Positions 10,016 to 58,657 of a DNA stretch of 64,000 bases are shown in pieces; the first letter of the stretch is position 1, and each line of letters opens with the position of its first letter. The stretch lies in the NCBI GenBank assembly GCA_043228905.1, contig JBHGNT010000013.1, forward strand, positions 8,308,001 through 8,372,000. The letters run 5' to 3'. Position numbers and translations under genes: made by a program. Below the pieces are notes generated by a model that was given only the letters and a program-made list of their open reading frames with translations, was not told the DNA's origin and did not search any database. The stretch comes from Azolla caroliniana (lineage: Eukaryota > Plantae > Polypodiophyta).

Positions 10016-10019
10016 CCTG

Positions 10020-15391: not shown

Positions 15392-15722
15392 TGTTGAGCG
15401 GCAAGCTCAAATGGAGCCGGATCGGCTGAATGAGCCTGAGCCGGTAAGCGAGATGAATCGGTATGCCAGTGAGCAACCGAGCCGGTAAGCAGTAAGGACC
15501 GGTGAGCTGGGGAGCCGGTATGCCGGATCCAATCTGTAACCGGAAGCCTAGTAAAGGTTAGACTACTATGCAGTTATAGTCTCGTAGTTAGTGTCAGATG
15601 CTCGTGTGAGCATTGAAGTACACCGTACTTCTAACAGTCCCGTGTGGACTTGTATAAATAGCGCTGATGAATGCGTTGTAGATACAGAGCACAGAGTATT
15701 CATATAATTTTGAAAAATAGTG

Positions 15723-15772
<50 letters not shown>

Positions 15773-19808: not shown

Positions 19809-20884
19809 TGGATGATACTCTTTGGCCTTATCGAGTTTCTTATAAATTCTCCATAGGTTTTACTCCTTTTTATTTGGTTTATGTTACCGATTAGGAACAC
19901 GGTCTTCAGTCAGTCCTTCGACCTAGACCTCAAGGTGACTACGTTGCCATGAATGGTACTGTCGTACCGTAATACGTAATGGGATAACTCTTTGTATCCT
20001 AGTAGCGTATAAGAGCGACGGCTACAACCGAATTCCCTAGACAATGCACTAGTCACAACACTCACACTCACGCCTACGCTTCTTACGATTAGAGTGCTTA
20101 CGCTATGCCACCAAGAATCACAGACACACAGTAGATTAACCACAAATTTGCATAGGATATCAGAGAAGATAAAACTCTATTAACATATGCTTTATGCACC
20201 AAAATTTACATGCTACCTCTATCAGAGGATTTCTGCCCTTTATATACACAGGATCTTTTAGCCGTTCACGCTTCCCACGTGAACCGTTTACATGCGTTAC
20301 GTTTATAGTATATTCAATATTTCTGCGCTCCTGTCTGTCGGTTACTATTCCGGTAGACAACACCTGGCACGCCTGTGGGACAGTGCCATGGCACGTCGGA
20401 CCCACCCCTTTAATCTTCCTCCAAAATGTCCCTGATGTTTGGTTATGCTCCAGTGTTTGGGTCCGGGGATGGCGTAGTGTCCGTAGGCGTGTCATTGCGT
20501 CGTTCCACTACTTGCTGGGTAGGACCTCCCCTGGTGTCACTGGCTTCTTGTGTGGGCAGTACGGGCTCTGTGGGCTCATCTTGTGCTATTGTGGTTGGTT
20601 CAGGTGTCGGCGGGCTTGCGGTAGGTCCAAGTTCTCTCTCATCCATAACTTCCTCCGTGGTGTCAGCCATAGTCGTACACTCCGGTGAATGGGGCTGGGG
20701 TTCCTCTTGGATGGCGGTTTCGCTCTCTGGTACCGCGGGGGGCTCCGCTTGCCGTTCCGTGCTGTCCACCGTAGTGGTTATTTCCAGTGACATGGGCTGA
20801 GGTTCCTTTTGGTCGGCAGTATCCGGGATTGGTATCTCGATTGATTCCTCGTTTGTTTGCATGCTGCTAGCTTGCATGATCTGG

Positions 20885-21316
20885 TGAGATGACGCGAACT
20901 GCACGCTCCCTATACGCAACGCTCGGCCACAACCGAGCTTAGAATCATACACAGAAAACGGGAAATAAATGCACGACACAAAGAAGAGAAGAGTACACAG
21001 GATGTTTACATGGAAAACCCAAACTAGGGAAAAACCACGGCAGCCCACAGGCTGCAAACTATCACTATGTTAGAATGTACAACAGTGAGTGCACGGAGGC
21101 AACGACCTCGCGCTCACGATCTTCGCCACAGGCGGCGGTTTAAACAGAGGCAACGACCTCTTCCTCTCTCTCTCTCTCTTATGCCTGTACACAAGAATAA
21201 CAACCAACAACTAAAAGTTTGCCCTAAGTCATATTTATACTAATATGACTTTTCGGCTATTTACAAATATAGCCATGATGGACTCTCAGAAACATATTTA
21301 CGAATATGTCTCTTCA
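20885..21316 (-). mobile_element. Solo LTR (Copia-type) inserted in the Gypsy-2 extra ORF
   Basis: TG..CA ends. Flanks TCTGG / TCCAG are both derivable from TCCGG by methyl-C decay. Contains the GGGTTTTCCA(C/T)GT motif common in plant Copia LTRs, on the minus strand. Confidence 0.75.
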
Positions 21317-21330
21317 TCCAGTGAGCACTC

Positions 21331-21548
21331 CTCACCGGGTCTGCACCATCCGGCTCTCCGTAGCCGGGTACTCCTCATCCGATTCTCACTAGGTCTACAC
21401 CTTCCGGCTCTCCGTAGCCAGGTACTCCTCATCCGGTTCTCACCGGGTCTGCACCATCCGGCTCTCCGTAGCCGGGTACTCCTCATCCGGTTCTCACCGG
21501 GTCTGCACCATCCGGCTCTCCGTAGCCGGGTACTCGTCATACGGTTTC
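21331..21548. repeat. 54-bp tandem repeat, 4 copies
   Basis: ctcaccgggtctgcaccatccggctctccgtagccgggtactcctcatccggtt at 21331, 21385, 21439 and 21493. Confidence 0.95.
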
Positions 21549-24500
21549 CCACAGTTTGTTCATCAACACTGTTCTTCTCCCTTCCCATCCAGAGGGACCT
21601 GTCTCCCAACATGAGACATGTCCTCCTGACTTTCGCCAAAATCGTCTAGTAGCTGCACGAGTTCCTCGGAGTGTTCGTCCACTAGTGTGTGATAGTCCTG
21701 CGCTAGGTCCTCGCGTACGACTGCAATTCTTTCTTCATTAAGTTTGTAGAACCCTCAGCTGTCTTTCCTTCGGTTCTTCCAGTCTGCCCCGTATGTATGC
21801 AATTCCACTGCTTGTGCGGCCCACGCCATCTAGCCTTTGTCTAGCGCTGCTTTTAATTGCACCGTAAACCTCTCCCGATTTGTTTGAAGAAATGCACACG
21901 TTGTCGGTTATTGCTTGGCAACGGTTGCATGCTTCTTCTACGATTTTCTTGAGGTTTTCGATTTCTTGTTTACTAACCGCCACCGCTTCTTCATAAGTGC
22001 TCCTCATTCCTGCCCATAACTGAGATTCCTTCGAATGTAATTCTTCCAGCTTTCCCATTTTATTGTTCAGGCAGATTTTGAGCTAATGCCTTCTCTCCTG
22101 TTCCCCTACAAGCTGCTCGTCGAACCATACTTTCTTCTTCTCCAATAAGGCCCGAAGTCCCGCGATCACCGCTTTCAATTTTTGCGCTTCATCCCGTAAT
22201 TGGGCATTTTCTTCTTTCGTCCGAGTGTGTTGTGTTGCCTCTACTGCGAGTTTCTCTTCAAGGGTCCTCACTGCCTTTTGGCCGTTGGCCTGGATGTCCT
22301 TTTCTATGTCCGAGGACTGGCGAAGTTCGGAGCAGAGACGGTCAAACTTTGATTCCGCCAGTTGCATGGCCCGTTTTGCTTTCGAGGCAATGGCGGTCTG
22401 GGCCTCAATTTCTTCTCTCAGGGTGATTGGGGCGTTGGCTATTGGTTGAGCTGCCTGCTTTGCCGTAATCGCGCTATGTTCCAACTCTGCGATGCGTGCG
22501 TTGGCCTTTTGTAGCTCGGCTTGGGTCAGTTTAATAGTCTTCCAGACATTTTTGTTTTTAATCGCCATATCCTTGGCGCCCATATTGACCTTCGCCAGTT
22601 CCCTATGAACTTCGACAAGGGCCGCATTTAATGGGGGTAGTTCCATCCCCATTCGGCATATACTGGCGTTCCGTTGTCTGCCGACTTTGGTTAACTGCTC
22701 CTCATCATCGCTTTCTGTCGTTTGTGTTAGCGCGCACTCAATCATTTGGCACTGCGCGTGTTCCACGGCTATTCGTTGTGAGACTTTTATTTGTTGTGAT
22801 GCCAAAAATTCCATGAGTTCAAAAGGGGTTCCGAACTGTAATAGTGTGTGGAACTCATGGGCTGTGTCTGGAATGTTCGGATACACCAGGACCTCGCTTT
22901 CCGCCGTAAATACGCCCTTCCCCCACTGTGACTGGGCCATAATGATCGGTCGTGGTTCCTGGATTATTTCGAAGGTGGTGTTGGGCTCTGTAGCTACGGA
23001 GCTGTCGACCACAGTCATCGTCTTTGTGGCTACGAGTGGGTCTTTAACTAACCTGCGCCCATCTTTCCTGTCCAGCCGTCGATGTTTCGGCTTAGGGCTT
23101 CCTTGACTTGGCTCGGCTTCTAGCTCCTGCGCAGTTTCCTCGCTGCGCTCCGCCAGCTCTTCCTATGTTATTTGCGTGTTGAGCTGGGTGGATTGGGGTT
23201 CATCCTCCCACTCTATGGTGGCCAACTCCACTAACCTTCACTTCGTGGAGCGTGGCAGCGACGTGGATTTTTGGGTCTGTGGTGCCGGTAGACCTCGAGG
23301 TGGGAATAGTATCGTCAGATACTGTTGTATGGTAGGCCTTAGCTTTTTGCTGCCTTGATATGCGTGCAGGCCTTCACGTTACGTTGGTCCCATAAGGACC
23401 CCCCAATTGACTGTGCGCCCTTCAATGGTATCAATGATGATACCTGCCTTCTGCTTGGGCATCCCATATGCGTTTACATGTACGCATCCGACCTCTAACA
23501 GGAACTTGGCTATTTCGCTAACAAAGGGGTCGGGGATTTCTTTAGTTCTATATGCCTTGGCAAACGCCGAATATGGCCTGAAATATCTCTGCAACGTTTC
23601 CGCAGGAGGAATTTTGAAATGCCTTTCTCCTAGTGATGACAGGTCCAGCTTTTTCCGGATGAACGTGTTGGTGACCGTGTCGATATTGAGCTTCCTAGCG
23701 ATGTCCACTACATCAGGGTGGGGAGGTGCCCCGACGACTCTGATGTATCCATCCAAGCGTTTCTCCATGAGCCATCGACGTAGGGCGACAGAAATAGGTA
23801 TCGGCATAGTCGAATGGTTAGGCTCGTGGTTAATGGGTGAGGACTATTGGCTATGGCGAACTTGAGCTCTGTGATAGGATGGAGAAGAGGGTGAGGGAGG
23901 GGAGCGATGAGAGTTAGAAGGTTGGTTTCTATACTGTGCAGAAAACCTTCTATTTCCTTCTTTTTGTGGCCTAGGGTTCATTGGTTGTTGAGCCATCGTG
24001 GTGCCGCGTATTCTTGTCCTAGAAGTTTGTGCATGCCTTAAGTCCTTTTAATAGCGTCGCTATCTTCTCTCCCTTTTTTATTTTTATTTTTTCCGGAACA
24101 GTTACATACAATATTCTTTTTACACTATAGTACAAATGGAGCCCCTTACTCCGCGGATTTCCCAGCATTGTCCTGTTCGGCGGGGAACGGGGAACGGGTT
24201 AGGTGGCATAGGTCCTAGATAAGGTTTAAGGCGAAACTCATATTTGCCCTCTAGTAGTCAGGCTCGTACTTGAATCCGCAGACTGGGTACCTGGAATTCG
24301 ACTGGCATCACGGCCTCTAGCCCAAATGCTAGCCTGAAAGGCGTTGATTGTATGATGGTCTTATCACTGGTACGGTATGCCCATAACGCTTGGTGCAATT
24401 TGGTATTCCAATCCGTTCTGTTCTCATTGACTATCTTTTTGAGGATAGTTTGTAGGGTTTTGTTCGTGGATTCTGCCAAGCCATTTGCCTGTGCGTAATA

Positions 24501-27500
24501 TGACGTACGTTTCTTGTGAACCACAACGTAATGTTGGGTCAGTTCGCTGATGACTGTATTCAGAAAGTGACTCCCTTGATCACTAATGAGCTCGATAGGG
24601 CAACTGAAATTACACCAGATGTGTTCGTAAATGAATTTCGTCGTGACTGCCACGGTATTCTCGCGTAGTGGTTTCACTTCTACCCACTTGGTACAGTAAT
24701 CCGTGGCCACCAGGATATACTTATTGCCTGTTCGAGCGGCCGCCGGGGAAAAGGGTCCCACAAAATCTAGCCCCCACTTTTGGAAAGGATCCAGTGGTAA
24801 CACTGGTTGGTGTGGCATTCTCGTGACTTCCGTGGGTTGGCCCAGTCGTTGACATAAATCGCACTGTTTGCAATATTCATACGCATCCTTTTGCGTAGTC
24901 TACTAAACATAAATTTTGACTCCGTACGGTCAGCCGTTCTTTCTCGTCCGTCCGTAATTGGGGTGGCGGTAACCCCGTGATTAGGAAGTAGGTCATTTCC
25001 ATTAGCCACCGTCCGGAAAAGTCTTTTCCGTTCATTCGGCTAGAATGGCTACACGCAGAATGTCCGCAACCGGAAAGTCTTCATCATCCTTTTGCATCGT
25101 TTCTCCATTATCAAGTCTGCTCAAGAAATCCGCCACCACGTGTTGTGTACCCGGTCGATGCTGAATGACAAAGTCAAATTCTTGAAGCAGCAGCATCCAT
25201 CTAGCCAATTTCCCCGTCACCGTTGTTTTCCTACCAAATATAGCAATGCCGAATGATCCACGTGAAACGTGAATTTCTACCCTAGCAGATAATGCCGGAA
25301 CTTATTGATGTTGTAGATCATACCCAACGCCTCACGTTTCGTTGTGGAATAGCTATGCTCAGCCGTTGATAATTTCTGACTAGCGTAGTACACTGGCCGG
25401 TACTAATTTGGCTCCATGAGTTGCATTAGCGCACTACCTATTGCTATGTCCGAGGCATCTACGAACACGTGGAAAGGCTTCGCCCAAACTGGTGGTTGTA
25501 CGATGGGTGTCTGCGTTAGCATTATCTTTAGCGCATCATACGCCTTCTCTTCCATTGTTGTCCATTTGAAAGGAGTTTGATGAACGGCGGCATGTAATGG
25601 CGTAGCAAAGTCTGCCAAATAGCGTATCATCTGACTGTGCCATCGTATTTGTCCCAGAAACCGGTTTAGTGCTTTCGTGTTTCTCGGTGTTTTCGCATGA
25701 GTAATCACGGAGATTTTGTTCGGATCGACCGCTATCCCTTCCTTACTGACTATGTGGTCGAGGAGAGCCCCATTGGTAACGCCGAAGGTGCATTTGGCGG
25801 GATTCAAGCTTAAGCGCGCTGTTCGGCAACGTTCCAGGCAAAGCTGTACATGCGTAAAATGGTCGGTTGTTGTCCCATATACCGCAAAATCATCTAAAAA
25901 AACTTGTAGGAAGGCCAGAATATATTCCCCAAAAATCTCCGTGATTGTTTGTTGAAATGTAGTCGGCGCCGTCTTTAGCCTGAACATCATGACAATTGCG
26001 ACATAGACTACCCAGTCCATGACAAACGTCGTCTTCTCTTGGTCATCGGGGTGCATGCGTACTTGATTGTACCCACTGAAGCCATCTAAAAAGTTGTACA
26101 TGTCATGCCCGGTGACAGCGTCCAATACGTTGTCGGTGAATGGTAAGGGGAATGCGTCGGTAATGGTTACAACGTTCAATTTCGGGCAGTCCACACATAC
26201 ACGTATTTTGCCATTTTTCTTTGGTACGACTACTACTGGGCTTAACCATGTAGCTTGTTTGACTGGTCAAATGAATCCGGCCTTGAGAAATTTGTCAATT
26301 TCTTCTTTTACGCGAGCCGCGTAGTTTGGGTTCATGCGGTATCGACGCTGCTGGACCGGTTTCGCATCTGTCGCTAAATTGAACTTATGTTGATAGAACT
26401 TCGGATCTAGCCCCTTTATGTCCTCGTGGGACCAGGCGAACACATCTTTATACTTCCTGAGTAGTGCTATCATCGTGTCTCTCTGATTCGACAGTAGTTC
26501 TTTTGCGATGGACAAGAATCAGGGTTCTTACTTCTTACAGGGCGGAGGCAGTGACTCATCGTGAAATTTCGATTTCCCTCTCGAATGCTGCCCTTGCTCT
26601 ACTTAGTTCTAATATTGACTCCGGGTTTGGTTCGTAACCCTCGTCGTGGGGTGCAGCAGGCGTGGCATACTCTGCCGCAGTTTTGATGACGTCGATTTCG
26701 AATAGCAGAATGATCTGGGTGCTCGTCTAGGTATACTTCTAATTCTGTATCATCCACCCCCACCAACATATTTATGTCCTCCGCGTATAACGGTGTTATG
26801 CCCTTCGGTTGTACCGTCATTTCCTGTGTTGGTACGCAAACCTTGGTGCGTCTGCGCCGAAAGCCGATGCACTTATGTTGCCAGCTCTGCTTGATATTTG
26901 CTGAACAAAGCCACGGTCTGCCTAGCAACATAGGATACGCTCCTGGGGCGTCGAGGGTGAGGAGTACCGCCAAGATGTCGAAGCGATGTCCTCCCACGAT
27001 AATGGCTAACTTGCGTATTAAACCCAATGGTTGTACTGAGCGGGTATCCACCATGCGAAGCCAAAACGGGCAAGCTTCCCATTCGGAAATTCCCAATTGT
27101 TCGCATGTCTTCGCGCTAATTACATTGACGCCAGAGCCGCCGTCGATTACGCATCCTGTGATTTCCTGACCATGTAGTATCAACTTAATAGCCGGATTGT
27201 GGTGATCCACCACTGTTGGTCCGGCGCTGATGTCTGTAAAATTTGCGGAGATGCTTACCCCAGGTCCGGTGGAATCGTAGGACTAGTTCAAGTAGCTTCT
27301 CCATGGTTAGCGTTATCTCACAGCCTACCAGTGCTTGCCATATGGGATCCGGAGATATTACATCTTCCTCCGACGGCTCCACCATGTTTGTGGACTCCTT
27401 CCGCATGCGTTCCGTATTTGCCGCGTTTACTTTTTCAACCCATGCTTGGGCCGTCTCACGTATCTCATCTTGCATAGTCCAATCAACATTTTTTGTTTGC

Positions 27501-29543
27501 TGGCGTGTCATCACTTGCTGCACTTCCGTTGTAATCATATTGACGGCAGGCCCCTTGCCCTTGCATAATGGGCATTACGTGGCATAATGTACGGGCTGTT
27601 GGCAAACAAAACAATGGACGCTAGATTCACCTTTCTCGGCAACTGGTGGTGTGTGCCGATCCCCAGGTGTGAATTGCTCCTCCCGGTCCTGTTTCGTTCT
27701 TCGGAGCATATGCGGTGCTTGTTGTTAGTCGCGGCGTGGTTCTTGGTGCGAGTCCTCTTCCGAACTTTCGTCGTACTGTCGTTGGTCTCGATACTGACGA
27801 TGTTTTCCGTGAGGCCCATTGAAGCCGCCACGTTTGTTCGTCGGACGATAATTCTCGTAGCGTCGGCCCCCCTTTATTATTTCTGTGGTTGCCATGGTAG
27901 TCTTCATCCTCTGGCTCGTCTTCCTTGGAATCATTGTTATTCCGGCAATTCCGGTAGTGCCGGTCATCGCGTGGGTTCCGATCCATATACCGGGGTCGTT
28001 CTTCTTGGCGCCTTTGCTCATTACGGCGAGGGGGCACTGTGTTTCCACGCTTCGTACCATGGGCATGGCTCTGTTCAACATATTGTACTCACACTGCTTG
28101 ACCGTGTGTGCTTTCGAGTGACAAATTGGGCAGTGGATTCGCATGTTGCAGTCGACTGCGGAATGCCCAGAATTCAAGCAAATCGTGCACTAGATTGCCT
28201 GGAAGAAGGGTCGTTCCTCGTCCTGAGGTAAAGCTTGCCGTAATGAAGACATGGAAAACCTGTCTTCTTCTTCGTCTAGCTCGAGCTGTAGTGCTTGTTC
28301 TATAACCATGTCGGCCATTTCACCTTTCACGCCACTATTGTTAAGCGTCGTCCGTATCGGTCGTCATAGAGCTTCCAGGAATGTCTCCCGAGCCTCATTT
28401 TCCGTCGGGCCCCATTCTAATTTTCGTCGGAGATTTTGGAAGCGTAAACTGAAATCCGCTACAGTTTCAGCCGACAATTGTTTACTTGTATAAAACTACC
28501 CGAGGATTTCGCGTTGCGGCACCTTCTGATGAAAGAAACGCAAAAAGGCCAACTGCAGCTGGTCGAAGGTCTTGATTGCTGGCAGATCCATCTGCGAATG
28601 CCAAAACGCGGCTCTCCCATCTAGAGTTAATCCAAACTCTGTCATTTTGGACTGGTGGGCAACTTCTTCGAGAAGGCTCTGCGCCATGTGATTTGCATTC
28701 CAGACATTTAGGAATAGGCGAATGTGGGTTGCGGCGTCGATTTCGCCGTTGAAGCGGGGATACGAGAAGGCCATGTTGGACCCTATAACGGGTAGGGAAG
28801 GACCACGGTGCTTGTGTGGTGAGCGAACTTTTTGTCTGTCGCCGGGGTATTTGGTGAGAGGGAAGTCGTCTTTGTGGTCCTGACAGGTATCATTGAGGTC
28901 ACTCAGGTGAGGTTTTTGTTGTGCGCGTTCCTCTGCCTGGCATGTGATGGACCTTGTGATTGGTCGGTCTTGTCATGTTGGTTCTCTGGGATGTCTGCGG
29001 CTAAACATCCATTTGTCGTTGTTCGTCTTTGAGAAGACATAGATCACCAAGTGTGCCAAAAGTGTTACCCATTAGGAACACAGTCTTCAGTCAGTCCTTC
29101 AACCTAGACCTCAAGGTGACTGCGTTGCCACGAATGGTACAGTCGTACCGTAATACGTAATGGAATAACTCTTCGTATCCTAGTAGCGTATAAGAGAGAC
29201 GACTACAACCGAACTCCCTAGACAGTGCACTAGTCACAACACTTGCACTCACGCCTATGCTTCTTACGATTACAGTGCTTACGCTACGCCACCAAGAATC
29301 ACAGACACACAGTAGATTAACCACAGATTTGCACAAGATATCAAAGAAGATAAAACTCTATTAAGATACACTCTATGCACCAAAATTTACACGCTACCTC
29401 TATCAGAGGATTTTTGCCCTTTATATACATAGGGTCTTTTAGCCGTTTACGGTTCCCACGTGAACCGTTTACATGCGTTACGTTTATACTATATTCTATA
29501 TTTTTGCGCTCCTGTCCGTCAATTACTATTCCGGGGGACAACA

Positions 29544-30446
29544 GTTTATGGGAAAGAAGCATTACTTCCTATCGAACTTGAGATCAAAAGTAACAGATTA
29601 ATGGAGGCATCACATCTCTCAAAAGGAAATGATGTGATGAGTCGTTTAGCGAGCAACCATCTACTACAATATTCAAGAGAAGAAGCCATGGAGCATTACT
29701 TAAATCAAGCAATGAAGAGAAAGGAGGCATATGACAAAAAACACAAGGGTAACCACATTGAAGAAGGATCATTAGTTCTTAGGTATGATAATAGATATGA
29801 TGTGATGAGTCGTTTAGCGAGCAACCATCTACTACAATATTCAAGAGAAGAAGCCATGGAGCATTACTTAAATCAAGCAATGAAGAGAAAGGAGGCATAT
29901 GACAAAAAACACAAGGGTAACCACATTGAAGAAGGATCATTAGTTCTTAGGTATGATAATAGATATGATGTGATGAGTCGTTTAGCGAGCAACCATCTAC
30001 TACAATATTCAAGAGAAGAAGCCATGGAGCATTACTTAAATCAAGCAATGAAGAGAAAGGAGGCATATGACAAAAAACACAAGGGTAACCACATTGAAGA
30101 AGGATCATTAGTTCTTAGGTATGATAATAGATATGATGTGATGAGTCGTTTAGCGAGCAACCATCTACTACAATATTCAAGAGAAGAAGCCATGGAGCAT
30201 TACTTAAATCAAGCAATGAAGAGAAAGGAGGCATATGACAAAAAACACAAGGGTAACCACATTGAAGAAGGATCATTAGTTCTTAGGTATGATAATAGAT
30301 ATGATTATATTCAAGGACAAAAGCTTGATAATAAGTGGGAAGGACCCTTTGTGGTTCACAAAAAGTATGGCAACGGAAGTTACCAATTGAAAGATGTAGA
30401 TGAAGGAAGCACTTCATTCTTATCGAGTCAACAAATGGCGCCTTAA
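29544..30446 (+). pseudogene. 3' integrase region of the Tat-like Gypsy with a 4x168-bp in-frame repeat
   Basis: Resumes VYGKEALLPIELE after the Gypsy-2 TSD; KWEGPF..GNGSYQL. Confidence 0.9.
29629..30304 (+). repeat. 168-bp (56-codon) perfect tandem repeat, 4 copies
   Basis: gatgtgatgagtcg at 29631, 29799, 29967 and 30135; copies identical by eye. Confidence 0.97.
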
Positions 30447-31007
30447 AAAGTATGTAAGTTGGGGACCTACTTATATTCCCCAAGTTACTCATGATATTGT
30501 TGATACCGATGGATGGGAGCAAGAAGTGGACTTGTTTCCCCATACATTTTTTTCTTAGTAGTCCATATTGTAGACCCATCTTTCTCTCTATTGACAAAGA
30601 GGATGATGGTAATAGTGATTATCATTTTTATTACAGAATGTGAGGTTTTTCCTACTGATTAGCGGGGGTTTTACTCACATCTTTTTATTTTCTTTTTGAT
30701 TATATCTCTCTCATTGTCTATAGCCAAGAGATTGGCGGGAGAGCTTTCCTTTGTTAAGTACTACAATTAAGTGCTTCGCCATAAATGACTTAGCCTCTAG
30801 CAAGGGGGAGGGCTAAATGTGAAAGTGTTTTTAGAATCTAAGCCATTGAACATTAGAATAATATAAAGTATGGATAATTCACATTTGGAGGCTAAGACCA
30901 TGAACCAAGACCTTAGGAAGAAGTCAAAAGTAAAAGTAAGAGACCAAGAGAAAAGTAAAAACATAAAAAGCGGACCATAAAAAATAGTAAAAAAGGAATG
31001 GTCATAA

Positions 31008-32332
31008 CCATATTTTAGTTGAGTAGCTAATTAGCTAAGTGGTAACTAATTAGCTACTACCATAGTTTAGTGCAGTAGCTAATTAGCTAAGTGGTAGGTA
31101 ATTAACTACTACCAAACTTTAGTTGAGTAGCTAATTAGCTACTGCCATAGTTTAGTACAATAGCTAATTAGCTACTACCATAGTTTAGTACAGTAGCTAA
31201 TTAGCTAACTGGTAGCTAATTAACTACCAACATAGTTTAGTACAATAGCTAATTATCTAAGTGGTAACTAATTAGCTACTACCAAACTTTAGTTGAGTAG
31301 CTAAGTAGCTAAGTGGTAGCTAATTATCTACTACCATAGTTTAATACATTAGCTAATTAGCTACTACGATAGTTTAATATAGTAGCAAATTAGCTAAATG
31401 GTAGCTAATTAGCTACTACCATAGTTTAGTACAGTAGTTAATTACCTACTACCATAGTTTAGTACAATAGCTATTCTAGTAGGGGATTAGCAATTCTTGT
31501 AGCTAATTAGCTATAGTCATAAGTAACTAATTAACTACTCTGGTAGCTAATTAGCTATTGTTATAGGCAGCTAATTAGGTACCGTGGTAGCTAAATAGTT
31601 ATTCTAGTAGCTATATAGCTATGTTCGATATACTATGGTAGTAGCTAATTAGCTACTTAGCTAAAGTAACTACTACCATACAAGTATGGTACTAGATAAT
31701 TAGCCACTATAACTAAAGTATGGTAGTAGCTAATTATCTACCACTTAACTATTTAGCTACTACCATACTTTAGCTGACTAGCTAATTAGCTATGTGGTAG
31801 CTAATTAGCCACTACCATACTTTAGTTATAGTGGCTAATTAGCTACTACCATGCTTCAGCTGAGTAGCTAACTAGCTAAGTGGTAGCTAATTAGCTACTA
31901 CCATACTTTAGTTGATTAGCTAACTAGCTAAGTGATAGCTAATTAACTACTATCACACTTTAGCTGTAGCTAATTAGCTACTACCATACTTTAGTTGAGT
32001 AGCTAATTAGCTACTACCATACTTTAGCTAAGTAGCTAATTAGCTAACTTGTAGCTAATTAGCTAGTACCATACTTTAGTTGAGTAGCTAATTAGCTAGT
32101 ACCATACTTTAGTTGAGTAGCTAATTAGCTAGTACCATATTTTAGATGAGTAGCTAATTAGCTACTATCATACTTTAGTTAGAGTGGCTAATTAGCTACT
32201 ACTATACTTTAGCTGAGTCGCTAATTAGATGCTAGCATACTTTAGCTGAGTAGCTAATTAGCTAAGTGGTAGCTAATTAGCTACTACCATACTTCAGTTG
32301 AGTAGCTAATTAACTAAGTGGTAGCTAATTAG
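31008..32332. repeat. TAGCTAATTAGCTA satellite array
   Basis: Same units; part of 31008-31630 is repeated at 33255-33480. Confidence 0.95.
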
Positions 32333-33254
32333 TGTGAAAGTGTTTTTAGAATCTAAGCCATTGAACATTAGAATAATATAAAGTATGGATAATTCACATT
32401 TGAGGCTAAGAACACGAACCAAGACCTTAGGAAGAAGTCAAAAGTAAAAGTAACAGACCAAGAGAAAAGTAAAAAGAGAAAAAGTGGACCATAAAAAATA
32501 GTAAAAAAGGAATGGTCACAACTCCATTTTTCACCCAAATATTATGTTTAAATATGGGTTAGAAATCTTGTAAAGAGAGCTATCTATAACATTTTGATGA
32601 GGGAGATATGACGATTAGAAGGTCGTTGGGTCTTAGCTAAAATAGGAGATAAAAAGCTTCTAAAAATAGCGTGAACGAGGAAGAAGAAGAAAATTATAAT
32701 AAAGGAGGGGGATTAGAAAGAAGAAGAGGAAGAAGGGTCTTAGTGGAAGGAGGGGATCATGATAGAGGAGGAGGGATCCTAATAGAAGAGGAGGAGGATT
32801 AGGAAGAAGGGTCTCAGTGGAAGGAGGGGATCATGATAGAGGAGGAGGGATCCTAATAGAGGAGGAGGATTAGGAAGAAGGGTCTTAGTGGAAGGAGGGG
32901 ATCATGATAGAGGAGGAGGGATCCTAATAGAGGAGGAGGAGGATTAGGAAGAAGGGTCTTAGTGGAAGAGGAAGGGTCTTAATTGTGGGTTTGAGTGATT
33001 GGTAGTAAGAAGGTCTTTGGTTTCTTAGTTGAATGTGGAGTTTATCTCCTTTATATTGTCTTGATATTGGAATATCATAACAATCTTATCTCTTTCTCAT
33101 CTTCTCTATCTTTTTTCTTAATTTCTTGAGTCTCTCTCTCTAATTCGTAGATACCATGATCTATATAATATATTATGAGTCACAATTCGATTTAACCGGT
33201 TTGGTCATGCCCTCATATAGTATAAGATTACCCTTTGTCTTAAACACCCTATCA
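32333..33254 (+). mobile_element. Solo LTR of the Tat-like Gypsy (922 bp, expanded GA-rich repeats); TSD ATTAG
   Basis: Full homology to 10484-11266; ATTAG on both sides. Confidence 0.95.
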
Positions 33255-33590
33255 ATTAGCTAGTACCATAGTTTAATACAGTAGCTAATTAGCTACTACC
33301 ATAGTTTAGTACAATAGCTATTCTAGGAGGGGATTAGCAATTCTGGTAGCTAATTAGCTATAATCATAAGCAGCTAATTAGCTATTGTTATAGGCAGCTA
33401 ATTAGGTATTGTGGTAGCTAAATAGCTATGATTGGTAGCTAATTAGTTATTCTAGTAGCTAAATAACTATGTTCGATATACTTAGGGAGCAATTTAGCTA
33501 ATACTAGTAGTCGTTAGTTATGGTCATATTCTGAGGTAGGTAATTAGCTATTCGGGTATGGTCATATTCAGAGGTAGCTAATAAGCTAAC
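33255..33590. repeat. TAGCTAATTAGCTA satellite array next to the transposase exon-1 donor
   Basis: Same units. Confidence 0.9.
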
Positions 33591-33637
33591 TAACTAAGCT
33601 CAAAAGTCAAAACAAATGTAGAGATAAATGTAAATAC

Positions 33638-34396
33638 CTGAGGTACATCAAGAAGATGAATGGGATGCTCCTCGAATTGACTCCTTCCAACACGTTTCCT
33701 GCATAAATCCTTCTTATTGGGTGAAACCCTACTCTCATTAGTCCAAAATATTGTGATTATATTCTTGATTTCTGTTGTTATTGGTGTCATTGGCATACAT
33801 CTTGTTGTTAGCTTTAGCATACTAGTTCCTTCACCCGAGGAAACTATCGGATTCAATGTATTGTACACACTTTTTCTACTAACACCAATTACCTTAGATA
33901 GCACACCGATGTTAATATTGTCAACATCACTATTAAGTAACATCATTAGAGTAGACCTGTTTAAGACAAGATTATCTTCTGAACAGCTCATGGATACGAA
34001 ACTATTACGGAGATTATTTACCAATAGAGATGTTATGTTTGCATTAAGACCATCACAATCAACTAACTCCTTTATCGATGGATCATTTAATATTCCATAG
34101 AGTACTACCTTCTTTTCTTCATTGCTGATGTGCTTGGTTTGAACATTGAAATAGTCTACAACCTTTCTCTCTATGATAGTAGTCTCATTACTTCCATTCT
34201 CACTGATATTTAAACCTATATCCCAACCAATACTATCTTTAGCTTTAGTGAGTGTGGCTTTCATATCCTTCAACAATTGACGATTTTTATTATTTTCTGC
34301 CCAATACTTTCATATTGCTTGTTGTGTCCTGATAGCGTCATCCCTATCCTGATGATCATTGAGGGGTAATTCTAAACACCCTCCTTCCCCTTCCAT
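33638..34396 (-). pseudogene. Probable first coding exon of the Sola2 transposase (N-terminal part)
   Basis: ORF 33590-34276 (..FWTNESRVSPNKKD..HLLDVPQ) ends at a CAG|GTATTT donor at 33638. It is on the same strand and inside the same TIRs as the catalytic exon. Candidate ATG at 34394-34396. Confidence 0.7.
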
Positions 34397-34554
34397 TTGG
34401 CTTGACGGGGATAAACCCTAATTTTCCCGAAAAAAAGACACGTATTAAAGATGGCTATGGGCAACAACAATACACAAAAATATTCCACAATACACAAGAT
34501 TATACACAACAATACCCAAGATAATTAATAGACAAAATAGTTATTCAAATCCAA

Positions 34555-35035
34555 GACCGAACAATGGCAGTAATCCAAGGGCGGCAGTGGAGGAGTGAAC
34601 TCCATTTTATCGAACAGTTTTGACAATCTAGGACCAAACAATGACGGCAACTGAGTGTAGAATGATGGCAATGGAGGAGTGAATTCCGTCGGATCGAATA
34701 GTGGCAGATGATGCTTGGAACGCACAGTGATGGCAACTGAGAGGAGAATGGCGGTAGTGGAGAAGGAGTTTAACTCCATCGGATCGAAAAGTGGCAGCAA
34801 TATACGACCTTCACAGTATCAGCAACCGAGTGTACAGTAGCGACAATGGAGGAGTGAACTTGGCAGATGATGCTTGGACTGAACAGTGGCGACAACTGAG
34901 TGCAGAATGGAGGCAATGGAGGTGTGAACTCCATCGGATTGAACAGTGGCAGATGATACTTGGACCACACAGTGCTGGTAACTGAGTGTAGAATGGCGGC
35001 AATGGAGGAGTGGACTCAATAGGGTTTAGCAACAG
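34555..35035. repeat. Degenerate ~85-bp subterminal tandem repeats of Sola2 (about 6 copies)
   Basis: Recurrent ctgagtgtagaatggcggcaatggaggagtgaactccatcgga units. Confidence 0.8.
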
Positions 35036-35320
35036 TGGTAGTAATGTAAGCCAAAATACTTAACCAAAGATAGCCCACGTGATGTGGCAAAGGATCATGC
35101 ATAATGGACCTCGGAATTCAGTATATAATTTATGGTGCACATATCAATCAATTTATGTTGCACATTTATGGTGCTCATTTATATAATTAAAACTCTCTAC
35201 TATTTTCAATGGTAGTTTTTTGCATAGCTAGTTTATCAATGGTAGCTCCTTGCAAAAATGACTATTTAGCAATGGCAGCTTTTTGCATAGCTAATTAGCT
35301 ATGTCAAGACATAGCTAATT

Positions 35321-35344
35321 GTTTCCACTCGCATGCTTTCACCC
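35321..35344 (-). repeat. Right terminal inverted repeat of the Sola2-like element
   Basis: Inverted copy of 2955-2978; followed by TSD CAAA. Confidence 0.9.
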
Positions 35345-35442
35345 CAAACATGAAAGACGATGGACAGGATCTTGCACCGATCATTAATCTTAAGCAAGCG
35401 CTTTAGAGCACAGAGAAGGAATCTTGGATAGATGCTATGCAA
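35345..35442 (+). mobile_element. Continuation of Copia-1 after the Sola2 insertion (start of RT region), truncated
   Basis: Removing 2955-35344 and one CAAA restores the frame STFTT-NMKDDGQDLAPIINLKQAL*STEKESWIDAMQIE, the Copia pre-RT 'AL...W..AM..E' motif. Confidence 0.85.
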
Positions 35443-36650
35443 ATCGAGGCAGCTGCTCTTACAAAAACAAGACATCTAAATACGAGAAACGGATGACACA
35501 AGGAAAGGAGCTCGAGGTGCTTGAGGACTCAGATACCATAAAAAGCTTTTTGCACAAGGGTGATCCTTTCCGACAATTGGATTATAGTGTACATAATGGT
35601 GATATGGGTAATATGCTTGACATAGTACCCAAGAGACATTGTACATTTCTCGTGGCGGATATACCATATGGCTTTAGAATATCAGGCTCAACATACAACA
35701 GTGTGCCATACAAATATCCGCAAATAGAGAAGATGGTTAAGGACTTTGCGGAGCTGACCCTGGCACCATTATGGTGTATTGTTATATTTCACAGTATGGG
35801 TTAGGCGTTATCGTTTACGACTGCATTGAAGTCGAGGTGCCATGCCACCAAACATATCCATTGCTAGGGATTATGTTACTATATATTTAATGTATGGATT
35901 CTATAATGCTTACTACATATTTATTAACTTGTTTCAATTCAATTATAAAATAGGGTTAAAACAAACATAACTTGTATCCTGGGTGATCAAATGGTGAGCG
36001 TTGTGGAGCACATGTGCGTGGGCTACTATGACGCAATTTCTAAGAAGAAGGCTCAGGCACATGTTAATGAGCGGAATGTTGTCAACTATATCATGTGCCC
36101 AGCTGTAACAAAGAAATTGCGGCACGTGTCTGGCGATAAGAGTTTAGTAAACCCTTATCAAAGCCCCAACGATTGATTAATCGATTGGTTGAGTTGTTCT
36201 CAAACCCTGATCATTAGGTTCTTGACTTATTTTCTGGAACAGGTAATCTCATAAATTTCATCAATTTTTTTAAAAATGAAATATTATTTCTTGTTTGGTT
36301 TTCTTACTTTTGTATGTGTGATTGTTTATTTATGAACGATGACTACATGTGCTCTTAATTTGTTCAGGAACTACGTTGCATTAGAAAAGGACCCCGACCA
36401 AGTCAATTTTATTAAGATGAGGATCCAAGGCATCTGGGAATGTCCCAACTAGGACCAAGAGGTTGGGGCTAAGCATATCAACGAAACAGGGATATTTCAG
36501 ATGGCCTCTAGAGAGCCGATGGAACTTATAGACGAGAAAGGAGGCGACCTTGTCGACCTTGAAGATGCACCGGGTTCTAATCATATACAAGATTCAACTG
36601 AGGAGGCAGAACATGTTGATGCAGCACCAATGTCAGCTGATCTTGGATAG
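35443..36650 (+). pseudogene. Intron-containing beta-class N4-cytosine/N6-adenine DNA methyltransferase (N6_N4_Mtase-like), 5'-truncated and disrupted
   Basis: Exon A: VHNGD..FLVADIPYG (motif IV, 35658-35669). Exon B, 35954-36242: (W)VKTN..VEH..NPYQ/PQRLINRLVELFSNPDH*VLDLFSGTG (motifs VIII, X, I). Exon C from about 36334: TMTTCALNLFRNYVALEKDP..R (motif II). Motif IV before motif I defines the beta class. Confidence 0.85.
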
Positions 36651-37338
36651 TAGCCTATTCCAGACCTCCTAATGGAGTGATTGTATATTAGTTTGAATTT
36701 GTAACTATAAAATTGTAACACTAAACTTGTTTTGGAATATAAGATTATTTTGTTTGAGTACCATTTCTTTACATTATCTGATTGGTTTGCCAACTTTAAG
36801 TGTCCATCATATATTTGTATTGGTTGACTCGCAAAGTATGTGGTTGTTAAGTATAATTTTTATTGAATAGATGATGATGAACTTATCTATTGTATGACAA
36901 ATGTTGGTTATAATAGTTTCTTTATTAATATAATTGAATTTAGCTTTATTCTAGGATTTCTGAGCTCTTTAATCTTGGTTATTTAGTTTCGAGTGTACAG
37001 AATAATATTAAGTCAATGTTGTTGCTCACTTGATCTTACATTTAGGTTATTCGTATATGATTGGATATAATGTTCGTAGAAGTTTTTGGGCATGTGAGGT
37101 ATATAATGTGATATTCACTTGTGAATATGTGTCTAATTATACCCAAAAATGCAATTTGCTCATTTAATATAACAAGCTTTATAGGAGTTAGAGAGAAATA
37201 TAGCATTAAATTTGTGTTTCTAAAATTGTTCAATTGAATTCAAATTCAACATTATGTAAAATGAAGCATATTAAATTGATAGTTGAAAGCATTCTTGTAA
37301 TCCAAGTGAATGTTTGGCTAAATATGTGTATATATTTA

Positions 37339-39640
37339 AAAGCTTCGAAGATTTTCAGCTCCCCCTCGTCGGTCAACAATATTCGCTCTTCTTCTAGAAA
37401 TCTCTGGGGGACCCTACTATCTCTTAGAGGGTATCTCAATCCTTGGTTTTCGATCACTGGTTCCTCTATCACTTCTTCATTAGAATCTGATTTGGGGACT
37501 TGTCCGGTTCTGGTGTCCGATTCTTTGTCTTCGGTTGACTCCGTTCTTTGTCTGAATCTAACTGGTTCATCATGTTCTTTGGTTGATGTCCGGCTTCCGA
37601 TCGGATGTGTCCTAGCATCTTCCAACTGATCTCTGTTGCTCGACCCAGAATCCATTATCTTCTTCTCCGACTCCTAGTCGGCAATGGTCTTGTTTTCCAT
37701 GAAGACTATGTCTCGACTTCGGAAAACCTTCTTGTCAACCAGGTCCCATGCTCGGTAGCCGAACTCATCATCGCCATACCCAAGAAATATGCATGGCCGG
37801 AACTTCGGATCCAATTTTTCTCTCTTGTCCCTTGCTACATGTACGTAGGTGAGACAACTGAACACCTTCAAGTGCTAGTAAGACACATCTTTACCGGTCC
37901 ATATTCTCTACGGTGTGTCTCCATCCAAAGGTGCTAAGGGTGATCTGTTTATCACGTACCTCATTGTCATTAGCGCCTCAGCCCAAAACTTCTTGGGTAG
38001 CTTAGCATATGCCAACATGCTCTGGACTCTCTCCATCAAAGTCTAGTTCATCCTTTCGGTCAATCCGTTCAGCTCCAGTGTCTTCGGCATGGTAAATTCA
38101 AGCTGTATTCCTCGAACTACCCCTAGTACTCTCTACGGTTGTCGGCTCTAACTGCCTTCAGTTTCCAGCCGGTTCCTCTTTCCACTCTTGCATGGAGCTC
38201 CTTGAAGAAGGTCAGTACCTAATCCTTTGTCTTCAACGGTGGGACCCACAACTTCCGACTATGGTCATCTATGAACGTCACGAAGTGATGCAGCGTAGCA
38301 TGTGACTTCGTGTCCACATGACATACAACAGTATGCACAAGCTCTAGTGGTTCTTTCCATGTTGACGGTGGTCTTGACTGGAAAGAGGTACGGTTCTACT
38401 TGTCGACCAAATAGTCGGTGCACTTCTCAAGTTGCACGTCTTTCTCCTCCGGAATGAGGTTATCTTTGGCAAGTGTCCACATTCCCTTCTAGCTCATGTG
38501 GCACAACCTCTTGTGCCACAACTCACCGGCAATGTCGGATACCACGTTCACTTCTTCTTGGCATATCCGGGCATGCATAAGGTACAATGTGTTGATATTT
38601 CAGGCTCAGCCCACGATCAAGCTTCCTTTGCTGAATTTCATAACTCCGTTCCGGATGTTACATGTGTAGCCTTCATCATCCAACCGACCGACTGATATCA
38701 AGTTCAACCACCAATTCCAGATGAACCATTGGAGACTCTCGAACAAAGCATTCTGGATATTTTGGATGAAGAATAGCAAGGTACTGTCCCATGGGCGTGC
38801 CATGTGTTACCGGTCGGCAAAGTAGTCCAGAGTGTGAAATGGAGGAGTTATATAATTATTAGGAATGGTTGTAAGTAAGCTATTAGTGTGGACGGACGGA
38901 CCGGAATCGGTATGCCGTTCCAAATCCGGACCGATCTCAAACAGGTGCGGATGGCACCGTTTTGTACTACGGACCGGAAACCTATTTAAAGGCCCGGATA
39001 CAATGTAATGAGCAGCGGTTAATTAATAAAGCTTAGTGTTTTTATCTCTCTGTGTTAATTGTCGTTCTGCATTCATTGTTATATCTTACGCATGTGATTA
39101 TTAAGGACGATATTGCTAAGTAACCTAATTAAGTTGGATTAATCGTTGAACCTAATCCTCTTGTCGTAACACCCCTTTGGTTAAGTGTCTTCTGTGGACA
39201 CCCTGTGTTAGGCCATTGTCCGGCCCTAAGAGTTAACAATGATCTCTGGCTCTGTAGGATGAGAAGCACTTCCAATCGGGGGTCAGATGGAACGACGCTC
39301 CAGAGTCGACCTACCACGTTGTTTCGTCGCTGCTAAATGTAGCTCGCTCTCTTCGGTGATAAGCATCAATTCTTCTTCACTTGTCGCGATTTCCAACTTT
39401 CTTCTCTGATCCGAACCCTTCTTAGAGACGACATTGTTGGTCCCCCCTTTCTCCTTCCAGAAGTGTTGGCAGTTCTTCTGGAAGTGCCCCGGCTTCCCAC
39501 AATAGAAGCACATGGGCCTACTTGACTTTGACCTCCTCCCCGATATTTCCCGGTTCTGAGGACTCCAATTCCGGCATCTTCCCCTGTTATTGTCGTCTTC
39601 TATAACCAAGGCCTTCGGATTTGTTCCGGATTCCTGGTAC
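37339..39640 (-). mobile_element. Copia internal fragment A (Tnt1-like): gag knuckle, protease, integrase
   Basis: CFYCGKPGHFQKNC, VDSGASFHL, LWHKRL, FIDDHSRK, KLDPKFRPCIFLGYG; interrupted at 38710-39238. Confidence 0.9.
38710..39238 (+). mobile_element. 3' fragment of a Gypsy-2-related element: end of extra ORF, tRNA-like motif and 3' LTR (38805-39238)
   Basis: ..DILDEE* matches the Gypsy-2 ..DILEED*. LTR TGTT..AACA has TATTTAAA and AATAAA on the + strand. The LTR sequence differs from the Gypsy-2 LTR. Confidence 0.75.
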
Positions 39641-43822: not shown

Positions 43823-44269
43823 GTAAGAACCACTAAATATTGACAATTGTCCATGGTACTGTTCCCGCAGAAAACTTCCTTAGGAATGATGAGTTTGTTG
43901 ACCAAAGGTTGTTTTGATTTTCAATGTTATCTTGTCAACCTAAGACTTATGAATTCAAGGGTTGAGACTGGCTTTAGATTAGATAGACTTGGTTTTCAGC
44001 AATTGTTTTCTTTTCTTAGAGATCAAATAGAGCGCTCAAGGTATTCCTTGATAATCTTGGAGACAGTAACAGAATCTAAGACAGCCAAGAAAACAAGAGA
44101 GGCTTAGTCAGAGAGATTTTATAGAATAGAGGATCTTAATGAGACAGTATTTCCATGCACACAGAGCAGAGCGCTCTACTCGGTCTTGTCCCGAGTTCCA
44201 AAAGCGGCCCTACTAGTCTTTGGGGAGGGTAGTGAGAGGTAAATTATTGGCAAAGAAGAAGAACCTTAC

Positions 44270-44557
44270 CTGGTTCGTGCGTACAACAACAGAGCGGGGA
44301 GGCATGGGGGGGTGTGGTCGTTCATCCGAGGCGTTCATGAAGGCACTGCTATCATTAGTTGCAGATGATCGGCGAGGAGGGCAGTGGACACCGTTGCTTG
44401 CAGGAGCTTCATCACACCAATACAGGAGGTCCAGCGACAGCGGAGCTCTGCCGGATGCCGCAAATCTGTCACAACCATCGCCATGGCCATGGCCATGACC
44501 TTCTTCTTCATGCTCATCATCATCATCATCAGCAGCAGCAGCGTATGCCTCAGACAT
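44270..44557 (-). CDS. Host gene, DUF4057-like plant protein, coding exon 1
   Basis: MSEAY..SLDLLYWCDE..RTNQ followed by a GTAAG donor (phase 0); resembles STADLLTWSE..RSHQ of DUF4057 proteins. Confidence 0.7.
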
Positions 44558-44602
44558 GGTATGGGGGTTTCTGTGGAGGGAAACAGAGCAAAAGGAAAGA
44601 AG

Positions 44603-44634
<32 letters not shown>

Positions 44635-45001
44635 GCAACAACCCTAGCCAAAGAAACATAAACAGGAGGAAGAAATCATCATCATCGTCATCATCCTTCT
44701 TCTTCTTCCTTCTTTTTCTACTGCAGGAAAAGCAAAGCGGCTATCTATAACTTACACCCAACACAACCCCCATCCCATCCCATCCCATCCCATCCAACAA
44801 CGTTTTTTTACTTCATCATCGTCTGCATTTCACGTGAACAACAATGAAACAACTGCTACTACTGCTGCTACCACTAGTAACATATGCACATAACACACAT
44901 ACATATTAGCCATAGCCATTCCCATTCTCGTCTACCCATTCCATCTGCCCAAAGGCATGCATGCATGCATGTATGCACCACATCAGCGGGGACCACTGGG
45001 G

Positions 45002-45687
45002 GTGGTCCGGCGGTCACATTCGACCTCCTCCCAAGGCACATAATAACATACCTTTGGTCTCATAGGTCATATTTGACCTCCAAAGACGATAATATAATCT
45101 CTTTCTCTCCCTCTTTTTTTATTATCATAATTAGCTTACCCTATTGGTAAGTTGTTACACTTAACAAGTCACTATATCTTGGGTTCGAAACCCAATTTTA
45201 CTCACCTCTCTATTATATACTCCATACCCCAGTGGTCCGGCGGTCACATTCGACCTCCTCCCAAGGCACATAATAACATACCTTTGGTCTCATAGGTCAT
45301 ATTTGACCTCCAAAGACGATAATATAATCTCTTTCTCTCCCTCTTTTTTTATTATCATAATTAGCTTACCCTATTGGTAAGTTGTTACACTTAACAAGTC
45401 ACTATATCTTGGGTTCGAAACCCAATTTTACTCACCTCTCTATTATATACTCCATACCCCAGTGGTCCGGCGGTCACATTCGACCTCCTCCCAAGGCACA
45501 TAATAACATACCTTTGGTCTCATAGGTCATATTTGACCTCCAAAGACGATAATATAATCTCTTTCTCTCCCTCTTTTTTTATTATCATAATTAGCTTACC
45601 CTATTGGTAAGTTGTTACACTTAACAAGTCACTATATCTTGGGTTCGAAACCCAATTTTACTCACCTCTCTATTATATACTCCATAC
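45002..45687 (+). repeat. 230-bp perfect tandem repeat (3 copies) containing a LINE 3' tail and a Pol III B-box
   Basis: Units start at 45002, 45232 and 45462. Each contains tttggtctcataggtcatatttgacctccaaagacgataatataatct (nearly identical to 331-378) and GGTTCGAAACC. Confidence 0.95.
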
Positions 45688-45709
45688 ATATCTCTTAATT
45701 CACTAGATG

Positions 45710-50860: not shown

Positions 50861-50889
50861 CTTTTTTTTTCCCCAAAAGAAAAATTTAT

Positions 50890-51749
50890 AGGTAGCTAAT
50901 TAGGTACTGTGGTAGCTAAATAGCTATGAATGGTAGCTAGTTAGTTATTCTAGTAGCTATATAGCTATGTTCGATATACTATGGTAGTAGCTAATTAGCT
51001 AAGTGTTAGCTAATTAGCTACTTAGCTACTTAGCTACTTAGCTACTACCATAGTTTAGTACAATAGCTAAATAGTTAAGTGGTAGATAATTAGCTACTAC
51101 GATACTTTAGTTATAGTGGCTAATTATCTAGTACCATACTTTAGTTGAGTCACTAATTAGCTAACTAGTAGCTAATTAGCTACTACCATACTTCAGTTGA
51201 GTAGCTAATTAGCTAAGTGGTAGCTATTTAGCTACTACCATACTTTAGCTGAGTAGCTAATTAGCTAAGTGGTAGCTAATTAGTTACTACCATACTTTAG
51301 TTATAGTGGCTAATTAGCTACTACCATACTTTAGTTATAGTGGCTAATTAGCTACTACCATACTTTAGCTGAGTCGCTAATTAGCTAACTAGTAACTAAT
51401 TAGCTACTACCATACTTCAACTGAGTAGCTAATTAGCTAAGTGGTAGCTAATTAGCTACTACCATACTTTAGCTGAGTAGCTAATTAGCTAACTAGTAAC
51501 TAATTAGCTACTACCATACTTCAGTTGAGTAGCTAATTAGCTACTACCATACTTTAGCTGAGTAGCTAATTAGCTACTACCATACTTCAGTTGAGTAGCT
51601 AATTAGCTACTACCATACTTTAGCTGAGTAGCTAATTAGCTAGTATCATACTTTAGCTGAGTAGCTAATTAGCTAGTACCATACTTTAGCTGAGTAGCTA
51701 ACTAGCTACTACTATACTTTAGTTAGAGTGGCTTATTAGCTACTACTAT
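50890..51749. repeat. TAGCTAATTAGCTA satellite array (continues at 58507-58657 and 59443-59880)
   Basis: Same units. Confidence 0.95.
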
Positions 51750-58506: not shown

Positions 58507-58657
58507 ACTATACTTTAGCTGAGTTGCTAATTAGCTAATCGATAGCTAATTAGCTACTAGCATACTTCAACTGAGGAGCTACTTAGCTAAGTGGCAGCTA
58601 ATTAGCTACTACCATACTTTAGTTGAGTAGCTAATTAGCTAAGTGGTAGCTAATTAG

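Follow-up and report, generated by a model that had tools for sequence, protein, structure and literature searches.

How does a DNA methyltransferase gene of prokaryotic type come to lie among the transposons of a fern, what brought it there, and what might such a gene do for its carrier? The question is raised by a stretch of 64,000 nucleotides from Azolla caroliniana (contig JBHGNT010000013.1 of assembly GCA_043228905.1, positions 8,308,001 to 8,372,000; here called the window). An earlier note, made from the letters alone, had described there a spliced, three-exon beta-class amino-methyltransferase gene embedded in transposon DNA. Six-frame translation bears this out: on the plus strand, three exons between 35476 and 36680 encode a beta-class amino-methyltransferase with DIPY ahead of FSGTG, and all the motifs that the note had listed lie on this strand. 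We are nearly certain that 35476-36680 represents the 3' half, now dead, of a gene with introns that encoded a ParB-like/beta-class DNA methyltransferase and was carried as cargo by a Sola1-like transposon. That the gene is the 3' half of such a fusion is what the earlier reading missed.

Anatomy of the methyltransferase remnant

The anatomy was fixed by alignment to five relatives and by a list of differences against one of them, L019. The true homology runs from 35476 to 36680, which overlaps most of the span first proposed (35443..36650) and shifts both its ends: the first 33 bases belong to Copia, and the natural stop comes later. The remnant of the motif-IV exon (35476-35863) is truncated in mid-exon at its 5' end, has a GD at about 35602 and DIPY at 35658-35669, and is interrupted by a premature TAG at 35802. 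The first intron (35864-35953, 90 nt) has CT at its donor, where the relatives have GT, and an intact AG acceptor; a split tryptophan codon followed by VKTN bridges it (35862-35966). The middle exon (35954-36242) carries W-x-K-x-N, PYQKP and the DLFSG of motif I (36224-36238); a one-base deletion at 36159 cuts through PYQ.P (about 36153-36166), and a TAG stands at 36215. The second intron (36243-36333, 91 nt) splits the last glycine of FxGxG, and its acceptor reads AT here and AG in the relatives. The last exon (36334-36680) encodes VALEKD, which begins at about 36375, and an acidic tail, with TAG at 36450, 36648 and 36651; the tandem TAG TAG at 36648-36653 represents lesions, the natural stop being the TGA at 36678-36680. 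Both introns are placed where they are because all five aligned relatives keep GT..AG at them. With DIPY (35658) N-terminal to DLFSGTG (36224), the beta-class motif order is present in the window copy itself. The 3' non-coding part of the Sola1-like element follows on the same strand (36681-37341); homology to the element stops at 37341, against another Copia fragment that begins at 37343.

Is this copy alive? The earlier note had judged it dead, rightly: it has five TAG stops, one frameshift and two ruined splice sites, and its 5' part is lost. It cannot encode a full protein and has no 4mC- or 6mA-writing capacity, a capacity that we infer for the gene family. Contigs of four sequencing runs have the first-donor base and the tryptophan codon intact, and a minority of them restore the missing base.

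Profile searches in Pfam reflect this decay. The 27-residue motif-I piece of the window copy matches PF01555 at E=4.6e-5 and 23.9 bits, below the cut-off of 26.7, and the other three exon pieces, taken alone, gave no methyltransferase match; nor did a phmmer search with the window protein translated through its introns place a methyltransferase among its PDB matches. The corresponding exon of L019, which is 94.5% identical, reaches 34.7 bits, above the cut-off, and a Ceratopteris homologue 57.3 bits. Among 24 homologues, 18 have PF01555 as their best Pfam match. Membership in this family, which had been suggested earlier, thus holds for the relatives, and the window piece falls short of the threshold.

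Neighbouring elements and a duplicate fragment

Upstream, the gene abuts a Copia pol remnant on the plus strand (35349-35475), which lies outside the methyltransferase gene and continues the frame of a Copia element at 321-2954 (Copia domains at 896-2240). Its 43-residue piece had no Pfam match, and we take it to hold a pre-RT motif. The two Copia parts are separated by a Sola2-like element (2955-35344) with 25-bp terminal inverted repeats (TIRs), the left at 2955-2979 and the right at 35320-35344 on the minus strand, and with a CAAA duplication on each side; with it taken out, the Copia frame reads on without interruption to about 35475. The TIRs and duplication close the Sola2 element at 35344-35348 and methyltransferase homology starts only at 35476, so that the gene lies outside the Sola2 TIR, as had been noted before, and Sola2 is a bystander and not its carrier. 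The fusion of the Copia piece to the methyltransferase in mid-exon we infer to be a deletion junction. Transposase remnants of the Sola2 element lie on the minus strand at about 8400-9960, where DFEENY, SDG and HGKG are presumably motifs of the Sola2 transposase family.

A second fragment of the same dead copy (60992-62279, plus strand) comprises the second intron, the last exon and the 3' region, joined by a deletion to internal Sola2 DNA. It is 96% identical to the first copy and lacks the equivalent of 34713-36239. At its end stands the right TIR of the carrier (62244-62279, minus strand), which matches the 37-bp TIR of a complete relative, L014, and abuts a Gypsy gag fragment. Over 1,099 aligned columns, the two fragments depart from L019 in the same way at 33 positions, and a further 18 and 19 differences are peculiar to one or the other. 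Since the second-intron acceptor is lost and TAG 36450 is present in both, the gene was dead before the local duplication.

The surroundings hold further features of their own. A segmental duplication (58510-62098 against 32170-37341) is about 96-97% identical, and a 1.5-kb deletion at imperfect microhomology has cost it the Sola2 TIR and the greater part of the methyltransferase. The Sola2-like element (2955-35344) is swollen to 32 kb by nested insertions and has extra plus-strand frames at 3801-5336 and 6019-7799 with no significant Pfam match; an ESM Atlas query with one Sola2 cargo frame gave no usable match. Arrays of 52- and 33-bp units (5341-6070, 9970-10500, 31000-32330, 50886-51750 and 59440-59840) are built on a short palindrome, found likewise in the Sola2 subterminal DNA, and are possibly protein-binding arrays of that element. 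Three LTR retrotransposons (51867-58506, 15388-19811 and 19882-29543) have paired LTRs that are 97%, 90% and 92% identical, respectively. Near-perfect tandem repeats at 29458-30429 (units of 168 bp that stay in frame inside Gypsy coding sequence) and at 45002-45691 (three 230-bp units) are either recent duplications or assembly artefacts. On the minus strand, a low-complexity frame at 44213-44740 that runs into a GT donor may represent a host gene's first exon in the midst of the repeats.

A Sola1-like transposon as carrier

If Sola2 is a bystander, what carried the gene? A scan of metagenome contigs for relatives yielded 54 loci. One of them, L014, is a complete element of 7.6 kb, whose TIRs, each of 37 bp, lie at 180-216 and 7737-7773. 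On its minus strand it encodes a transposase of 897 residues (PF25273/DUF7869, E=1.7e-52) and on its plus strand, divergently, the spliced ParB-like/methyltransferase fusion gene; no restriction enzyme gene was seen in it. The window duplicate at 60992-62279 ends in the same type of TIR, as do the right ends of 10 further loci of the subfamily, and related TIR pairs occur in L009, L010 and L029. L019 is 94.5% identical to the window over 35476-37331 and 94.8% over 60992-62279; its 280 methyltransferase codons are free of stops, and a 547-residue frame upstream contains the N-terminal domain. Where the sequence extends 700 bp or more upstream of the motif-IV exon (30 loci), 27 loci have this ParB-like domain; where it extends 3.5 kb or more (six loci), five have the transposase. 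The window itself has neither the N-terminal domain nor the transposase of the carrier element. Among the other loci, L009 has lost the spacer between the transposase and ParB-like frames (3487-3511), L026 has a second, inverted element directly past its TIR (4012-6332) and L010 has a Sola2 transposase fragment as well (151-541).

Acidic motifs of the DUF7869 transposase read DGMDQ, LDN and GHTHDHIDQ. The label Sola1 is our assumption, drawn from the layout and termini of an element in Ectocarpus. A 4-bp target site duplication was present in one of four two-ended loci (TGTT, in L029); it does not fit AWWT, and the contigs probably collapse several copies. The 4-bp AWWT is the target site duplication of insect Sola1 (PMC3845634). 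Judged from its sequence, the carrier of the methyltransferase gene is a Sola1-like cut-and-paste transposon with TIRs. The suggestion that the gene is transposon-borne was therefore sound, and its carrier, formerly called unknown, is identified through L014, L019 and the window TIR at 62244-62279; the search for intact paralogues and the inspection of their flanks, both proposed with that suggestion, led to L019 without stops and to L014 with its TIRs and transposase. A single mobile unit made of Sola2 and the methyltransferase was considered and is ruled out by the closed TIRs with CAAA and by the history of the duplication.

How abundant is the family? One DNA run with the window sequence covers L019 throughout (30 of 30 bins, those of the N-terminal part and the TIR among them), and 1,813-3,203 contigs per run match a 2.7-kb stretch around the gene. 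Summed contig depth is about 900-18,000 on the exons versus 143-514 on the adjoining Copia piece, a measure that gives no copy count and fits a high-copy repeat. Two runs presumed to be RNA gave 4 and 0 partial contigs matching L019, with no spliced joint, and are uninformative on expression.

Predicted folds and catalytic motif of the fusion protein

What kind of protein does an intact element encode? The structural model of the L019 N-terminal part matches ParB/Noc at E=4e-6 (PadC: Z 9.4, rmsd 2.6 over 97 residues), and ParB, Noc, KorB and Srx occupy the top fold ranks; in Pfam this part finds DUF6551 only, at E=0.04. The N-terminal part is thus predicted to have the ParB nucleotide-binding fold. 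Its ParB motif region reads GGSHS, presumably without the arginines of the bacterial CTP-binding motif, and the ParB-like part had no credible phage match. The ParB-like part of L019 (nucleotides 1050-1946 of the locus) falls near fungal DUF3723 clusters in the ESM Atlas (score 0.96, 180 of 256 features), a likeness that hints, as a lead only, at a wider family of eukaryotic ParB-like proteins.

For the methyltransferase part, the model of P0047 (pLDDT 77.6), a 36%-identical homologue from another subfamily, retrieves CcrM first (E=3e-15) and N4CMT third (E=1e-12), with BceJIV and RsrI also listed, and METTL3 from rank 42 down (E about 3e-7). The predicted fold is therefore CcrM-like. When the family profile was run against the PDB, the top 11 matches were DNA amino-methyltransferases or putative modification methylases; the 6mA enzymes MboIIA, HpyAVI, CcrM and RsrI scored 38-45 bits, N4CMT 27.6 and PvuII 18.1, and rRNA dimethylases came in at E of 0.009 or worse.

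Which base would such an enzyme modify? Motif IV is DIPY in 37 of the 44 aligned sequences, NIPY in 4 and SPPY in none. M.HindIII, we assume, writes 6mA. DIPY is the motif IV of HindIII-like methyltransferases (PMC12294265); DPPY marks bacterial 6mA enzymes and SPPY most 4mC enzymes, and the N6_N4 domain has switched repeatedly between the two specificities (PMC8885841). Together, DIPY and the profile scores favour 6mA over 4mC of the SPPY type. A bias in methylation-target words was rejected as evidence, being a mild excess of AGCT (1.26-fold) in eight related and non-independent elements, and AAGCTT was absent among the enriched 6-mers.

Selection, palindromes and decay

Intact copies are under strong purifying selection. 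Of 18 locus pairs compared over the methyltransferase, five were saturated, and dN/dS is 0.00-0.10 in ten of the 13 that gave a ratio; the exceptions are 0.38 and two that involve the window copy, 0.17 and 0.36, the latter against L019.

A second conserved feature lies outside the coding sequence. The loci, 205 kb in all, contain the palindrome GATGC-N3-GCATC 30 times versus 0.11 in shuffles, always 0.88-1.63 kb upstream of the ParB core. The palindromes occupy the spacer that separates the transposase gene from the divergent fusion gene, a short way upstream of the latter. Of the 18 loci whose sequence extends 850 bp or more upstream, 13 have the palindrome. The five without the exact motif are L019, where one base differs, L009, which has no spacer, and three loci that break off about 1 kb upstream. 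The window has no such palindrome.

Along the window branch, C-to-T changes affect 19 of 81 CG (23%), 8 of 62 CHG (13%) and 11 of 285 CHH sites (4%). This order of decay, CG>CHG>CHH, is the pattern expected of host 5mC, and the fossil in the window records its own silencing. CpG observed/expected in the intact relatives is 0.66-0.93, inside the range of other window elements (0.40-0.96); CpG retention was tried as a mark of intact elements and does not separate them from other transposons.

Relatives and known systems

Homologues occur in Chara, Riccia, Diphasiastrum, Adiantum, Ceratopteris and Ginkgo, and the layout is known in Ectocarpus, so the earlier statement that eukaryotic examples are rare was too strong. 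In a tree of 46 rows (six of them prokaryotic, on long branches; MpDN4MT1 and N4CMT not among the rows), the window copy groups with L019 and L015 (100/99), within a clade that includes a Ceratopteris protein (98/99), and all 40 non-prokaryotic rows are separate from the six prokaryotic ones. With six long-branch prokaryotic rows, such a tree cannot name the donor. Prokaryotic matches are only 23-35% identical, so that no near donor was found; the closest phage matches have DLPY or DPPY, and the viral contigs searched yielded no relative. A Diphasiastrum gene model, P0044, fuses a cytochrome P450 to a fragment of this methyltransferase family and is probably an annotation chimera with a transposon remnant.

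The closest described counterpart is Sola1-1_Ec32 of Ectocarpus (PMC12477816). It is likewise a TIR element, there classed as Sola-1, whose termini begin AAC, and on the strand opposite the transposase it has an accessory gene with ParB-like and N4C/N6A methyltransferase parts; its authors proposed a role in self-modification. Compared by description, it differs in its host, a brown alga, in its length of 21.5 kb, in its imperfect TIRs of 282 bp and in its protein of 1104 residues (PMC12477816), whereas here the host is a land plant, and the family has a 7.6-kb element, 37-bp TIRs and a conserved spacer palindrome. The red-algal Plavaka (EnSpm) DNA transposons likewise have a PF01555 methylase and a ParB-like protein, encoded by their accessory genes PAG2 and PAG3, beside inverted-repeat arrays; in that description the domains lie in two genes, fused to SET and to a 2OG-oxygenase, in another superfamily (bioRxiv 10.1101/2025.02.11.637652), whereas here they are one protein.

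Outside transposons of this kind, CcrM, M.MboIIA, M1.HpyAVI, M.RsrI and the HindIII-like DIPY enzymes have the same fold and the same order of motif IV before motif I; the bacterial and phage beta-class enzymes differ from our family by their low identity (23-35%), and the family has introns and a ParB-like fusion. Marchantia MpDN4MT1a/b and bdelloid N4CMT are also prokaryote-type beta-class amino-methyltransferases in eukaryotes, yet they belong to the host, have (T)SPPY as motif IV and are proven to write 4mC, and N4CMT has a chromodomain (bioRxiv 10.1101/2021.02.12.428880; PMC8885841), whereas the enzymes here are DIPY-bearing, ParB-fused, multicopy and transposon-borne. The likeness to these 4mC enzymes that the earlier note drew was, on motif IV, overstated. 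DIRS and LTR retrotransposons that carry DAM have also co-opted a prokaryotic adenine methyltransferase, and 6mA is raised on some of them; their methylase domain is a different one, and the accessible text of that preprint mentions neither PF01555 nor ParB nor Sola (bioRxiv 10.64898/2026.05.21.726589). Chlorophytes are described as having Dams fused to ParB-HTH, and land plants few N6A methyltransferases (PMC4738411). Our literature search, whose coverage mostly left aside subscription papers, Repbase and preprint supplements, found no land-plant report of a ParB-methyltransferase transposon; the journal version of the Marchantia work or the red-algal tables could hold such a mention.

Competing explanations

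Could the gene after all be a domesticated host gene, or cargo of the adjoining Sola2? It does lie beside Sola2 DNA in both window copies; yet both derive from one local duplication, as their 33 common differences indicate, Sola2 is closed before the gene starts, the relatives' gene has its own TIR and transposase, and 1,813-3,203 contigs per run speak against a host gene. This reading is largely refuted and retains scarcely any probability. An RNA methyltransferase of MT-A70 or Trm11 type, or a methyltransferase domain serving as a mere binding module, is very improbable as well. METTL3 has the same fold, and UPF0020 gives weak matches in 2 of 24 homologues; against this, METTL3 appears only from rank 42, PF01555 is best in 18 of 24, DNA enzymes lead the PDB profile matches, and purifying selection has kept motifs IV and I. 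The finding that the earlier note had named as fatal to its reading, an affinity to RNA methyltransferases, did not emerge.

Two further explanations, both unlikely, keep the gene as cargo of the same transposon. Might the intact enzyme write N4-methylcytosine like DN4MT1 and N4CMT, and so block host 5mC on those same cytosines? The beta-class fold is common to both kinds of enzyme and N4CMT ranks third in the fold search; switches of specificity are documented (PMC8885841), and Marchantia is a plant that uses such an enzyme at CG. Opposed to this are a motif IV of D-I-P-Y and not (T)SPPY, profile scores that put the 6mA enzymes above N4CMT and PvuII, and the lack of special CpG preservation in intact elements. 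Or does the protein regulate transposition itself, binding the internal palindromes so that the mark controls the divergent promoters or access of the transposase? Dam methylation controls IS10 and offers a model; the palindromes sit in the spacer of the divergent genes, just upstream of the fusion gene, and transposase and fusion gene travel together. In the red-algal relatives, however, comparable domains come together with chromatin modifiers of SET and 2OG-oxygenase type, which points to control of chromatin (bioRxiv 10.1101/2025.02.11.637652).

Proposed mechanism and significance

The explanation that we lean towards, with some confidence, is that the fusion protein binds the palindromes, methylates adenine on its own element and so helps it to remain active under silencing. 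An intact element would make the ParB-like/methyltransferase protein; its likely binding sites are the palindromes that lie between the two genes, and its likely product is 6mA rather than 4mC, on the element's own DNA, a methylation that would help the element to stay active under host silencing. The proposal builds on what is observed of anatomy, lesions, TIRs, transposase, fusion, purifying selection, palindrome and CG>CHG>CHH decay; the step from this anatomy to function is read from sequence, and we hold it to be evenly balanced. Counted against it are the lack of a target word and of any CpG sign of protection, and the report that the DAMs of retrotransposons produced no 6mA in E. coli (bioRxiv 10.64898/2026.05.21.726589). 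A more specific version, possible and in our view doubtful, is that the ParB-like domain loads at the parS-like palindromes and spreads, so that the fused methyltransferase writes 6mA over the element; a bacterial plasmid-partition module would then have been repurposed, in multiple copies, in seed-free plants.

What does the locus mean for plant DNA modification? The reality of 6mA and 4mC in land-plant DNA, and of their writers, is contested, and an abundant transposon family with an intact, selected amino-methyltransferase of bacterial type is a concrete candidate writer. The layout was already described for Sola1-1_Ec32 of Ectocarpus (PMC12477816), and its occurrence in land plants would be the new part. 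The value lies in the intact relatives, the window copy being a fossil: with L014 as a compact, complete element, and with a candidate site for binding, the self-methylation idea from algae becomes assayable in land plants. Should the reading in which the protein spreads from the palindromes be true, land-plant DNA would bear an epigenetic mark that a transposon encodes and that is nucleated at a specific site, and the system would be so old that its relatives range from Chara to Ginkgo.
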